A stretch of 64,000 nucleotides of DNA. Source: Lophium mytilinum (lineage: Eukaryota). A program made the position numbers and the translations under genes. Below the pieces are notes generated by a model, which worked only from the letters and a program-made list of their open reading frames with translations, made no database searches and was not told the DNA's origin. The stretch lies in contig MU004188.1 in the NCBI GenBank assembly GCA_010093605.1, positions 1,615,673 to 1,679,672 on the forward strand, read 5' to 3'. Positions 12,676-19,358 of the stretch are shown here, piece after piece (positions within the stretch are counted from its first letter, which is position 1; each line of letters opens with the position of its first letter).

Positions 12676-13010
12676 TCGTGGAATTCCAAGGAGAGGCTGC
12701 AGCTACTCAGCTTCTGGCCCAACCAGCTACAGATCCGGCCCCTTAGAAGCGTGACTAGCCGCCAGGTGTCAAAAGCAAGGGGAGGCTACCAAGGGAGCCG
12801 AGGGGCGGCTGCAGCGGCATGGTGGAGGACGTTGTGGTGAAGGTGTTAATGTATGTAAGAGGTTCGCACGCGCAACGAAGTTGATATTCCGGCGGAACCC
12901 CGGCTGCAGATATCGGCCAAGGGGGTGTACAAATAACTATCCCTATGAATCACCCTCTCTTAATATCAAAATTCACCAAAAGAATAGGAAAAGATCAAAA
13001 CAAAAGAATG

Positions 13011-13098
13011 AGGGCGTACTCGGGATCGAACCGAGGACGTTAAGATGATAATTACGTGCAAACTGCAATCTCACACTCTACCACTGAGTTACACGCCC
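13011..13098 (-). tRNA. tRNA-Cys(GCA) with 16-nt canonical anticodon-loop intron
   Basis: Minus strand: GGGCGTG TA ACTC AGTGGTA GAGT G TGAGA TT GCA G [TTTGCACGTAATTATC] A TCTTA ACGTC CTCGG TTCGATC CCGAG TACGCCC T; all stems pair, 72 nt after intron removal, T-runs downstream. Confidence 0.95.
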
Positions 13099-14712: not shown

Positions 14713-15329
14713 ATGTCAGCCACAACAGCAGCCCCACTTCGATCAACCACACCCACGACCCCTCCACCACCCGCCTACTCGCCAACAACTCCCCTCCCCC
14801 AACCCTCTACAAACCTCCCCTACACCGCCAATGCCAACTACACCTACAACCCATACAACCCGTTCGCTGGCGACGATTCCGATAGCGAAGACGACGACAC
14901 GACTGTCGTCATCAACGCCTCGACCCAGATACGCGGCTCCGGAAACGTGATCGCTATGCCCCTCATCGACGCGCCTCGTATCAGCGCCGCGTTATTCTCC
15001 GTCCTGAAATCACACAGCACGGGGAAGAGGGGTACCGTCAATGTGCAGATTCATTGCGGGGTCTCGATCATTGGGGAGAGGAACGTAGTGGGTTTGCAGG
15101 GCGTGGGGCTACGGCCAAAGGCTGCAGCGACCACTCCGGCTGCAGCGACGCCGCAGAAAGATGGGGAGAGGGAAAGCGAGGTTGTTGAGGAGGTGAGAAG
15201 TACGGCTGGGATGAAGAGGAAGGCTGATGAGGTATGTTTGTTCCTTGATTGAAGTGTGAAGGCCAATGCTAATGAGAGTAGGATATCACGCCTCCAGCCC
15301 CCAAAGTCATCAAGGTTGAGAGCGCATAG
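14713..15329 (+). CDS. Hypothetical low-complexity fungal protein (2 exons)
   Basis: ATG 14713, PPPAYSP motif, INASTQIRGSGNVI and CGVSIIGERNVVG segments; intron 15232-15281 (GTATGT...GCTAAT...TAG); stop 15327-15329. Confidence 0.75.
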
Positions 15330-16265
15330 CCGCTTCCAATCTTACACCAGCTTTCTATTGGGTGACATCGTATAAGGCGGATATGGCTGGACTGTTCCAT
15401 CAGATGTTTACCTTTGTTCGACTGGGATTGGGGGGAGGAATAATCAGATTGTTATTTGAACGATATGGTTGTGGGTTGTTTGCATCGAGTGTGTACCGGG
15501 GGGGATTAATCCAGAGTAGAACGTCATTTTCATCAGCGATTTCGACACGGTTGTGGGCTTATTTGGGAGGAGGGTGATGGAATCATTGAATGGAAAGCAG
15601 TTATCCTTATGAAGTATATGGAGTAATGGAACCGAATTATACATAACCTCAAACACCCTGATAAATTATGTGTGGTGCAAAATATGCTTAAACTCTTGAC
15701 ACAAGTAGGGGCGTTTACTACAAACCTATCGATGCGAGCAAAGACCACTGAAAGGAACCAAAGAAAAAGACGTGTCGTGTGCATTATCTGAAAAGAGCTG
15801 TTCTTCGGGGACGCACACAGTCATACTACAATAGTAATACGCATGAAGCTCGGCTGTGAAAGGTGAATTGAACGGTTATTCGAGAGCAGTACGGCGAGAC
15901 TAATGAACTTGAAGCTCAGTTACATAATATAAGTCGTCCCATTGTTCTTAAAGCAACGACACCTTCCGAAAGTTGATGAAGGGCTGCTGAGTGTTCTCGA
16001 GCCAAGTAACGCAAGATGTAAGAATGGCGCTTCACTAATCTTGGCTATGATGATAAGTCTACCGGCTCGACACAGAAGGCTTCATACGTATTTCTTTTGG
16101 GCGAATAGACGGACACTCGTAGAGCACAGATGTCTCGGGTGAAGTGGAGGAAAAACATAACTTGATATAATCGGAAAGATGAGTACACTCATGCTGAATT
16201 ATGGACGCACAGTAGAGATGCAAAAAGGCATCCTCCATCGCCAGTGAGATAGACGGTGAAAGCGC

Positions 16266-16272
16266 AAAAAAA
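16266..16272 (-). terminator. Oligo(dT) Pol III terminator of the tRNA-Asp gene
   Basis: T7 run on the minus strand about 20 nt after the discriminator base. Confidence 0.7.
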
Positions 16273-16292
16273 GAATCCAAGAGGATATTTTG

Positions 16293-16439
16293 CTCCCCAA
16301 CAGGGAATCGAACCCTGGCTGTGACATCCGTTAGCATGATTGATAATCAGGCAATGGCTGCGGTGGTTGCTTACTCTCCCGCGCTTGTAGAGCTGTGAGG
16401 CTTGACAAGCGGAAATCATGACCACTAGACCATTGAGGA
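16293..16439 (-). tRNA. tRNA-Asp(GTC) with two inserts: canonical tRNA intron (16402-16384) and spliceosomal-type intron in the variable loop (16374-16319)
   Basis: After removing both: TCCTCAA TG GTCT AGTGGTCA TGAT T TCCGC TTGTCAC GCGGG AGAC CAGGG TTCGATT CCCTG TTGGGGA G = 72 nt, with G73 discriminator and intact A and B boxes. Confidence 0.92.
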
Positions 16440-17273
16440 TGATTTGACGTAATCCGTCGTTGTTTGATGGAAGAATGCACGAAATTTTGTTTATATGTAG
16501 TATGGACGTTGCGGAACGTACGGATGCAGCAGGCTTCGTTTGTGAAGCGAGATAAGGACTCAGGCACATTGATTACGGCGACTCACGGAAGCACACCGGA
16601 CAGAAGCGGTTGTCTGATTGGATCTTGACGACCGTATTGGAAGTATGAATAAGAGATATACAGGAGAGAGGGTGCTCATTTTGGGCTTGTGAAGAGCGGG
16701 CCTACGGAAAATTACCATAACGGAAATTCAACGCTGGCATGCAGGTGGCGGGACGCGTTGTGGGCCGATGACCACATGCCTTCTTTATGCTGTCGAAATG
16801 AGCATAACTAAACTACAGCCTACCGTTCTGCGCAACGCCTGGAAAACATATGATGCTGGATCCTAGAAGCGACAATATTGATAGAATGTATCATGACTGT
16901 GTCTAGGTAGGGGTTTGAGAGCAGATTCTAGTGTCAATGCCATCAGGTAGAGACGTAGGCTGGCACTGTATGATAAACGAGTTCTAAACCGAGATTCAGA
17001 CGCCATTAACGTGACTTAAAGAGAGCCCAGGGGTGCTTCGATTGGGCGAGTGTTGTCCAGGTGGATTCGTGAATGAGAGTGAAAATTGAGGCCGATACTA
17101 GTCACGTGCTGACGCACAGACCATGCGCCTAAGTAAACTTCGGGAGCTCTACTGCCTCAAACAACTTTCTCCAAACACCACTCCACATATCTGACGACAA
17201 ACTCCGTTGGCGCACGCGCCCTCAGATTGCTCACCTTTCTCTACGAAAACCCTAACCTCCAGCAACCGCCACC

Positions 17274-19358
17274 ATGGAGGCCTCACGAGGACCCCCGCGG
17301 GTCAAGAACAAGGCCGCAGCACCCATCCAAATCAGCGCCGAGCAGCTTCTGCGCGAAGCTGTTGACCGACAAGAACCAGGCCTGCAAGCGCCGACGCAGC
17401 GGTTTGCCGACCTCGAGGAACTCCATGAATACCAAGGGCGAAAGAGGAAGGAGTTTGAGGACTATGTACGACGGAATCGGATAAATATGAACAATTGGAT
17501 GCGCTATGCACAATTCGAGTTGGAGCAAAAGGAGTTTCGAAGGGCCAGGTCCATCTTTGAGCGCGCGCTGGATGTGGATTATACGTCGGTGGTGCTATGG
17601 GTTCGGTACATCGAGAGCGAGATGAAGGAGAGGAACATCGCGCATGCCAGGAACGTACTTGATCGCGCTGTGTCCTTACTCCCGCGAGTGGACAAGCTGT
17701 GGTACAAGTATGTTTATATGGAAGAGACCCTAGGCAATGTTGCTGGATGTCGTCAGGTTTTCGAGCGATGGATGTCCTGGGAGCCTGAGCCAGCAGCATG
17801 GTCTGCATATATCAAGCTGGAGAGGAGATACAATGAGGTTGAGAGAGCCCGGCAATTGTTTCAAAGATTCACCACCGTTCATCCAGAGCCACAGAATTGG
17901 ATCAAGTGGGCACGTTTCGAGCAAGAGAATGGCACCAGCGATCTGGTTCGGGAGGTGTATGGCATGGCTATTGAGACCCTTGGAGACGACTTCATGGACG
18001 AGAAGCTGTTCATGAGCTACGCCAAATTCGAGGCAAGTCTAAAGGAATTAGAACGCGCGAGATCAATCTACAAGTTCGCTCTCGATCGGATGCCCCGTTC
18101 CAAATCAGTCAATCTGCACAAGGCCTACACCACGTTCGAGAAGCAGTTCGGCGATCGGGAGGGGGTGGAAGACGTCATTTTGTCCAAGCGGAGGGTGCAG
18201 TACGAGGAACAAGTCAAGGAGAACGGCAAGAACTACGATGCCTGGATTGATTATGCACGTTTAGAAGAGACTGCAGGGAACATCGACCGGGTTCGGGATG
18301 TCTACGAACGGGCTATTGCACAGATTCCACCCACCCAGGAGAAGCGGCATTGGAGGAGATACATCTACCTATGGCTGTTCTACGCGCTCTATGAGGAAAT
18401 GACGAGCAAGGATGTGGACCGAACGAGGCAGATATACCAGGAATGTCTCAAGCTTCTTCCGCATAAGAAGTTCACGTTTGCCAAGGTCTGGTTAATGGCG
18501 GCGCAATTTGAGATTCGCCAAGGTCAGCTCCAAGCCGCTCGGAAGACGCTGGGGAGGGCGATAGGGATGTGCCCGAAGGATAAGCTATTCAAAGGCTACA
18601 TTGAGCTCGAGCTCAAGCTTTTTGAGTTTGTAAGATGCCGGACGCTGTACGAGAAATACATTGAATGGAACCCCGCGAATTGCCAGGGATGGATAAAGTT
18701 TGCGGAACTAGAGCGCGGTCTCGATGACCTGGAAAGAACCAAGGCGATCTTCGAACTCGCTGTGGACCAACCACAACTGGACATGCCTGAATTGCTGTGG
18801 AAAGCCTACATCGACTTCGAGGAGGAGGAAGGCGAGTACGACGCCACGAGGCAGCTCTACGAGCGGCTGCTGCAGAAGACAGACCACGTCAAGGTCTGGA
18901 TCAGCTGGGCTCAGTTCGAGATTGGGGTACCTGATGACGAAGAAGAGGTGGACGAGGACGAGGAGAGGCCGGTCAGCGAGGAGGCGAAGGCGAGAGCACG
19001 GAAGATCTTTGAGCGGGCGTACAAGAGCATGAAGGAGAAGGATCTGAAGGAAGAGGTATGTTTCCCCTCCAAAGGTACTTTCACAGGGCACATGCTAACT
19101 GTCACACAGAGAGTCGCTCTACTCAACGCATGGAAGTCGTTCGAGACAACTCACGGAACGGCAGCCGACCTAGAGAAGGTAGACGCCCAAATGCCGCGCA
19201 AGGTCAAGAAGCGGAGGAAGTTGGACGACGACTCGTTCGAAGAATACATGGACTACGTGTTCCCGGCCGACGACGAGAGCGCGGCCAAGATGTCGAAGCT
19301 GCTGCAGATGGCGCACAAGTGGAAGCAGGAGCAGGCCGGCCAGAATGGTGGGTCGTAG
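17274..19358 (+). CDS. CLF1: Pre-mRNA splicing factor Clf1/crooked neck (HAT repeats)
   Basis: [24 protein letters not shown]-terminus, repeated W..Y..FE...G...RAR..FERA HAT units, EEYMDYVFP near the C-terminus; one intron 19056-19109. Confidence 0.97.

Follow-up and report, generated by a model that had tools for sequence, protein, structure and literature searches.

We describe here a transfer RNA (tRNA) gene for aspartate, tRNA-Asp(GTC), that lies on the minus strand of a 64,000-nucleotide (nt) stretch of Lophium mytilinum contig MU004188.1 (hereafter the window, meaning the whole stretch of DNA that was analysed) and is interrupted twice. One interruption is a 19-nt intron at the canonical position between tRNA positions 37 and 38, and the other is a 56-nt insert in the variable loop that carries the 5′ splice site, branch site and 3′ splice site typical of a spliceosomal intron. 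Numbered from the first letter of the window, the gene and its signals are arranged as follows.

16403–16439, minus: tRNA-Asp exon 1, 37 nt, tRNA positions 1–37, with the acceptor 5′ strand, the D arm with the A-box-like TGGTCTAGTGG, the anticodon stem 5′ strand and the anticodon GTC (Rfam RF00005 alignment; ARAGORN after in-silico removal)
16384–16402, minus: canonical tRNA intron, 19 nt, between positions 37 and 38, by its position of the type removed by the tRNA splicing endonuclease (TSEN) (ARAGORN -i on the insert-free sequence)
16375–16383, minus: tRNA-Asp exon 2, 9 nt, CGCGGGAGA, positions 38–46, with C38, the anticodon stem 3′ strand and the first 3 variable-loop bases (sequence, Rfam, ARAGORN)
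16319–16374, minus: spliceosomal-type intron (the insert), 56 nt, in the variable loop between positions 46 and 48 (sequence, strict intron pattern)
16374–16369, minus: 5′ splice site of the insert, GTAAGC (sequence)
16335–16330, minus: branch site of the insert, GCTAAC, with the branch A at 16331, 12 nt from the insert end (sequence)
16321–16319, minus: 3′ splice site of the insert, CAG (sequence)
16293–16318, minus: tRNA-Asp exon 3, 26 nt, positions 48–73, with the T arm and its B box GGTTCGATTCC, the acceptor 3′ strand and the discriminator G73 (sequence, Rfam, ARAGORN)
16266–16272, minus: run of seven T (T7), likely the RNA polymerase III (Pol III) terminator, 20 nt past the tRNA 3′ end (sequence)

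This arrangement had been proposed in a preliminary description of the window, which read the variable loop as split by 56 nt with GTAAGC, GCTAAC and CAG and placed a separate 19-nt intron at 37/38 (16402–16384), and both points are borne out by sequence-based annotation. The Rfam tRNA model RF00005 aligns over 16293–16439 along its entire length (model positions 1–71 of 71; 33.7 bits against a gathering score of 29), with the 56 nt placed as an insertion in the variable region. Default ARAGORN makes no call for the interrupted gene in the native sequence, calls tRNA-Asp(gtc), with the GTC anticodon in a 7-nt loop and a normal cloverleaf, when both interruptions are cut in silico, and reports tRNA-Asp with a 19-nt intron at 37/38 when only the insert is cut. 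Joining the exons in silico at GT/AG yields a 4-nt variable loop and a 72-nt cloverleaf. The expectation that tRNA scanners would tend to miss this gene also held, with default ARAGORN missing it and the Rfam score barely above the cut-off, and because tRNA finders miss or just catch such genes, the counts of tRNA-Asp in these fungi may be wrong.

The identity elements of yeast tRNA-Asp are G73, G34, U35, C36, C38 and the G10–U25 pair, and all of these are present here by the sequence and the ARAGORN drawing. Exon 2, CGCGGGAGA, corresponds to the conserved eukaryotic tRNA-Asp sequence. The preliminary description further considered the boxes, stems and terminator to be intact, which holds for the B box, G73 and the T7 run, as well as for the lack of any run of four or more T in the gene body; the A box and the D stem are slightly off consensus, as detailed below. 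The locus is intergenic, with an unnamed open reading frame ending near 15252 on one side and, on the other, a gene starting near 17256 which, from a reading of its translation, we take to be Clf1/crooked-neck-like.

Matches to a strict intron pattern, sought on both strands of the window with 100 dinucleotide shuffles as control, are not rare as such: 12 were found, against a mean of 5.45 in the shuffles. The insert, however, is a 56-mer anchored at both ends by the discontinuity of the tRNA, and the probability that all three signals occur in it by chance is about 1e-6. Its donor GTAAGC fits the extended GTRWGY consensus of U2-type introns, and GCTAAC and CAG fit (R)CTRAC ... YAG. The 11 other strict matches span 47–94 nt, a range that includes the length of the insert, and two of them also begin with GTAAGC while two also carry GCTAAC. 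When these matches are removed in silico, 6 of the 11 leave 40 or more open codons to either side, so that they behave as expected if most were real messenger RNA (mRNA) introns. The claim that the insert resembles the mRNA introns of the window in size and signals holds for the comparison with these 11 matches.

No alternative structural signature emerged from the insert itself. On its own, its fold is no more stable than that of shuffled versions (z = 0.19, with 112 of 200 shuffles folding as well). A bulge-helix-bulge motif, defined as two 3-nt bulges holding the cut sites with a 4-base-pair helix between them, could not be drawn at the insert ends, where the best central helix reached 2 of 4 base pairs over 16 registers, and in a constrained fold both insert junctions fall outside any such motif. 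Because its ends have no bulge-helix-bulge, the insert is not of the type cut by archaeal or red-algal tRNA endonucleases. Nor is there a second copy of the insert within the 64-kb window, the best other blastn-short match being 11 nt long.

A 54-nt intron-like stretch of the Clf1-like gene (19056–19109, plus strand) has CATGCTAAC and TGTCACA in common with the 3′ part of the insert. Derivation of the insert from this intron was considered and rejected, since 16 matched bases with a 3-nt gap are too short to be told apart from a shared consensus; the likeness probably reflects the local branch and acceptor consensus rather than common descent. Elsewhere in the window, an ordinary tRNA-Cys(GCA) gene lies about 3 kb from the tRNA-Asp gene (13010–13098, minus strand; 89 nt, 49.9 bits in Rfam), with a 16–17-nt intron at the canonical position by sequence reading, and serves within the window as a reference for an undisturbed tRNA gene with an intron. 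No further split tRNA was detected in the 64-kb window down to E = 5.

We compared positions 16050–17450 at 80% likeness with the Logan contigs of four runs, namely X1 (DNA of organism A, which may be the window's own source), X3 (organism B), X4 (organism C, which covers only 17190–17450, outside the tRNA gene) and X8 (DNA of organism D). Differences were counted only at least 31 letters from the end of a piece, a zone referred to here as judgeable. All copies of the insert seen in the contigs of X1 and X8 sit in tRNA-Asp genes. In organism A, the contigs flanking the window locus have a depth of about 159, as single-copy neighbours, and a 128-nt contig covering 16300–16427 (record 3) has a depth of 379, about 2.4 times single-copy, contig depth being a poor measure of copy number. 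This contig shows no listed difference at 45 judgeable positions of the insert (16330–16374) or in exon 2, and five in the 19-nt canonical intron (16389, 16390, 16394, 16396 and 16397), a contrast between insert and canonical intron with a Fisher p of 7e-4.

Several sequence contexts surround these copies. Three different 5′ flanks (records 5, 7 and 8) meet the gene at 16439–16441 and two different 3′ flanks (records 1 and 2) meet it exactly at 16293, so that likeness to the paralogous loci ceases at the ends of the mature tRNA. Two paralogous loci have T5 or T6 runs within about 20 nt in their unrelated 3′ flanks (reverse-complement reading), and contigs without differences to exon 1 occur at multi-copy depth in both X1 and X8 (records 4, 6, 20 and 21). 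From the several unrelated flanks found at the tRNA ends, it follows that the genome holds several tRNA-Asp genes, with at least one paralogue type carrying the same insert. Within organism A, the insert is identical at the judgeable positions beside two types of canonical intron, which suggests either that gene conversion reached the insert side only or that the insert is constrained.

The same interrupted form is found in the related organism D. Beside the locus, its intergenic DNA has 53 substitutions and 13 gaps over 297 nt (66 events, about 22%), and its Clf1-like coding part differs at 11 of 185 positions. Two separate loci of organism D (records 17 and 18, of 35,965 and 46,242 nt) contain the insert. 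We read record 17 as the orthologue because it extends into its own, diverged form of the 3′ flank of the window locus and because record 22 connects the 5′ exon with the Clf1-like neighbour. Within its judgeable zone (16297–16401), record 17 has only four changes, all within the insert: altered bases at 16322 and 16358, a one-base insertion following 16359 and the loss of the base at 16367. No change is listed in the 22 judgeable bases of exon 3, in exon 2 or in the canonical intron, where 18 of the 19 bases are judgeable. These four events in 56 nt of insert are fewer than the rate in the flank (66 in 297 nt) predicts (Fisher p = 0.01). Record 18 has the other type of canonical intron (differences at 16389, 16390 and 16394, as in record 3 of X1) and four single-base insertions or deletions in its insert, and exon 2 is without listed difference at either locus. 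None of the 8 distinct events listed for these loci touches the 15 signal bases, a count that agrees with an intron but is weak alone (p = 0.08), and at one of the two loci the last three insert bases lie outside the judgeable zone.

The preliminary description had judged the gene to be maintained and had named decay of the GT, branch point and AG at an orthologous locus as the observation that would speak against this. No such decay is seen among the listed changes of organism D, and the judgement is strengthened by the paralogues and by the orthologue, in which none of the three signals has a listed change. Two types of canonical intron, with differences at 5 or more of 19 positions, exist in the tRNA-Asp family. 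Each type occurs in both organisms A and D, and the tRNA-Asp duplication is for this reason older than the split of the two species. Judged from these contig sequences, the insert was present before both the duplication and the species split. The insert is not a one-off lesion but is carried by paralogues and by a related species.

Run X3 shows no difference to the window in any of its five pieces, its contig depth spans 15 to 543, which is RNA-like behaviour, and its RNA nature is a guess from this behaviour in a single study. X3 contains both joined and unjoined forms across a 122-nt GT..AG intron (16823–16702, minus strand; CT..AC on the plus strand) that lies upstream of the tRNA gene, and the transcript pieces at 16673–17027 look like an unannotated spliced RNA running toward the tRNA gene and divergent from the Clf1-like gene. 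Reading frames in this region are short, with 50 codons from stop to stop upstream of the 16823 donor and 38 codons from an ATG at 16680. A consensus donor, GTGAGT, is also present 147 nt upstream of the tRNA gene (16586–16581, minus strand); together with the branch site and CAG of the insert it would make a 268-nt intron and, with the ATG at 16680, a frame of about 118 codons. None of the three open frames over the locus has a Pfam match, and a search for their homologues gave no candidate in the DNA of relatives and one irrelevant match among 1.84 billion representatives; the downstream open frame likewise has no candidate homologue.

For splicing of the tRNA itself, X3 is uninformative either way, as it has no cover over 16332–16660. 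One of its contigs (record 9, 676 nt) fits 16050–16318, passing through the T7 run and the tRNA 3′ exon, would by its length reach about 400 nt more to the left, and ceases to fit exactly at the 3′ boundary of the insert, with four letters left unplaced. A splice junction could account for this stop, and so could a copy lacking the insert, the end of a transcript or a break in the assembly, and we do not count it as evidence; it may mean that the CAG acceptor is used in vivo, by a tRNA precursor or by an RNA polymerase II (Pol II) read-through RNA.

Taken together, we consider it probable that the insert is a real and maintained spliceosomal-type intron of a tRNA gene family, removed from a working tRNA-Asp gene, and we assign this interpretation a probability of roughly 60%. 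Several observations weigh against it and should be set out together. Within the gene, the A box is one base off the consensus, T13 and T22 are mismatched in the D stem, and the two interruptions stretch the distance between the A and B boxes to about 107 nt. No joint that skips 16319–16374, taking 16375 directly to 16318, is present in the contigs of the four runs, which hold neither a spliced junction nor a lariat. In organism A, the insert is identical among paralogues at judgeable positions while the canonical introns differ greatly, a pattern that selection explains no better than recent gene conversion or recent spread. Contig depth measures copy number poorly, and short contigs and popped bubbles can hide variants. 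The depth of 527 for record 4 of X1, compared with 379 for the insert-bearing record 3, hints at an extra copy whose structure is not visible, and a 54-nt contig of X8 (record 19, depth 389) has a first letter that misfits 16374, right beside exon 2. Insert-less copies of tRNA-Asp may therefore exist, in which case the interrupted copies need not work if those others supply the tRNA.

Searches for relatives beyond organisms A and D, and for precedents, point in the same direction, as none came to light. A scan of metagenomes for the end of exon 2 and the start of the T arm separated by 40–70 bases, with GT/AG not required, gave 42 loci, none of them with a spliceosomal-type insert and many of them tandem tRNA genes by reading, and a scan of prokaryote genome contigs with a GT...AG pattern gave three loci, none of which was tRNA-Asp. 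The preliminary description knew of no spliceosomal intron in a tRNA, and our search of the open literature likewise found no published report of one. The available text of a review on U6 (PMC5855946) names U6, U2, U5, U1 and ribosomal RNA (rRNA) as non-coding RNAs with spliceosomal introns, and tRNA is not named in that portion.

The same set of observations has to be weighed under a reading in which the interrupted copies are dead or nearly dead, the intron sequence having inserted once, by reverse splicing and reverse transcription or by break repair, and having then spread unspliced by duplication or gene conversion while uninterrupted genes supply the cell. The hints at something else beside exon 2 in organism D and at an extra copy in organism A, the complete identity of the insert among organism A paralogues at judgeable positions, as after recent conversion, the missing spliced form in the contigs of the four runs and the lack of a literature precedent would all be natural under such a history. 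We nevertheless think it unlikely, because two species that differ by about 22% in intergenic DNA each keep the interrupted form at two or more loci, the exons and splice signals are without listed change, unrelated 3′ flanks keep T runs, and likeness among paralogues ends exactly at the mature tRNA ends, a pattern characteristic of selected tRNA genes and not of decaying pseudogenes. It is more improbable still that the branch site and CAG serve a minus-strand Pol II transcript to which the tRNA-like gene is a bystander. Such a transcript would start near 17027, lose 16823–16702, join a donor at 16586–16581 or 16374 to the acceptor at 16319/16318, and continue past the T7 run to about 15650. 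The RNA-like depth of X3, with its joined and unjoined forms of the upstream 122-nt intron, the GTGAGT at 16586–16581, the exact position at which record 9 ceases to fit (four letters unplaced), and a frame that stays open for 69 and 86 codons on removal of the 56 nt are consistent with this path. It would, however, leave unexplained why the same insert with GTAAGC recurs at loci with unrelated flanks in two species; moreover, the open frames have neither Pfam match nor homologue, the upstream frame has no ATG in the translation as read, the 3′ flank, unlike the coding neighbour, has diverged so far in organism D that no alignment at 80% likeness reaches past 16267, and the RNA nature of X3 is only guessed.

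Two further readings keep the spliceosome out altogether. Removal of everything by the tRNA endonuclease alone could take the form of a single 70-nt intron at the canonical position, leaving a 78-nt tRNA, or of two introns of which the insert is an ectopic one. ARAGORN -i on the native sequence indeed proposes tRNA-Asp with one 70-nt intron at position 38, and ectopic or variable-loop tRNA introns are described for archaea, a red alga and a nucleomorph in excerpts of PMC3978253 and PMC4033280. The single-intron parse, however, discards CGCGGGAGA, a stretch that every copy seen has without listed change. By sequence reading it also sets C31 against A39 as a mismatch and makes the variable loop too long, and it turns 16322 and 16323, which vary in organism D, into part of the tRNA. 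With no bulge-helix-bulge at the insert ends, and with the combination of GTAAGC, GCTAAC and CAG left to a chance of about 1e-6, we regard endonuclease removal as very improbable in either form. Least credible to us is that the insert stays in the RNA, which would then function, as a tRNA or in another role, with a variable region of 60 nt. Class II tRNAs do bear long arms in the variable loop, but the insert forms no stable hairpin (z = 0.19), the organism D copies differ by six single-base insertions or deletions, which leaves no conserved arm structure, and the splice signals would have no explanation.

If the insert is indeed a maintained spliceosomal-type intron, a plausible course of expression can be proposed. 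The gene would be a working member of a small tRNA-Asp(GTC) family in a filamentous-ascomycete-like fungus, with two introns of different kinds. We infer Pol III transcription, spliceosomal removal of the insert and function of the product from the arrangement described above. Directed by the internal A and B boxes, Pol III would transcribe the gene as far as the T7 run. The transcript would fold into a cloverleaf from which the insert loops out at the variable loop, the only site where a tRNA tolerates a large extra arm. Both splice sites would then be single-stranded in the looped-out insert, so that pairing of U1 need not open any stem; U1 would recognise GTAAGC, the branch-point machinery would recognise GCTAAC, and the spliceosome would take out the 56 nt as a lariat, for which fission-yeast U6 offers a precedent. 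The tRNA splicing endonuclease and ligase would take out the 19-nt intron. As a variant of this scheme, the RNA that is spliced might be a longer read-through product of Pol II, with the tRNA being cut out of it afterwards. It is conceivable, though in our view doubtful, that the intron is present in most, or even all, of the genes that encode this lineage's only aspartate tRNA, in which case the reading of every GAC and GAU codon would need the spliceosome to act on a Pol III transcript that also needs the endonuclease.

Should RNA data confirm splicing, this would be a first for a tRNA and would add a new host to the spliceosomal introns of non-coding RNA genes. Reviews keep the two systems apart: in the available portions of PMC12530127, PMC10275265 and PMC5855946, spliceosomal splicing is tied to Pol II transcripts with a few small nuclear RNA (snRNA) and rRNA exceptions, and tRNA splicing to endonuclease and ligase. 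More specifically, the excerpted text of PMC12530127 places spliceosomal introns in mRNAs and further products of Pol II and describes the three kinds of eukaryotic intron as having no relation to one another, and that of PMC10275265 contrasts the spliceosomal and tRNA splicing pathways. A tRNA that needs both machineries would, if true, be a new class of spliceosome substrate, and would join U6 as the second Pol III transcript in nature that needs the spliceosome. With a host that is tiny, multi-copy and conserved, the family would also be a clean system in which to follow how spliceosomal introns enter new genes. If most or all copies are interrupted, this would further mean obligate two-machine splicing of a tRNA, a coupling of tRNA supply to spliceosome activity, and an intron gain that can be dated.

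The closest known parallel is found in fungal U6. According to the accessible portion of PMC5855946, mRNA-type introns interrupt U6 snRNA genes in fungi, Schizosaccharomyces pombe among them (Tani and Ohshima 1989, 1991; Canzler 2016, cited therein), with a lineage-specific occurrence within fungi that is similar to that of the tRNA-Asp insert. In both cases, a short GT...branch...AG intron sits in the gene for a small, structured Pol III non-coding RNA. Splicing of the S. pombe U6 has been shown by experiment, and removal of the tRNA-Asp insert is predicted here from its sequence. Unlike U6, the host is not part of the catalytic centre of the spliceosome, and its transcript also holds a tRNA-endonuclease intron. 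Because the host is a tRNA, outside this catalytic centre, the origin usually proposed, reverse splicing into a neighbouring snRNA, is not directly applicable to tRNA-Asp.

Spliceosomal introns are also described, in the same portion of PMC5855946, for ascomycete ribosomal DNA (Bhattacharya et al. 2000, cited therein) and for the U1, U2 and U5 snRNA genes of Rhodotorula (Takahashi 1993, 1996, cited therein). These resemble the tRNA-Asp insert in being spliceosomal-type introns of fungal non-mRNA genes, including, for rRNA, a transcript not made by Pol II, and differ from it in the polymerase and in the host RNA. From the tRNA side, the parallels lie with the non-canonical or multiple tRNA introns of archaea, among them a variable-loop case in Thermofilum pendens (Kjems 1989), of Cyanidioschyzon merolae and of the Guillardia theta nucleomorph, which are described as endonuclease-cut in the available text of PMC3978253 and PMC4033280. 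These tRNAs share with tRNA-Asp two interruptions, one of them off 37/38 and, in the one archaeal case, in the variable loop. Their introns, however, are cut by the tRNA endonuclease, mostly at a bulge-helix-bulge, whereas the tRNA-Asp insert, without such a motif, carries the full set of spliceosomal signals.

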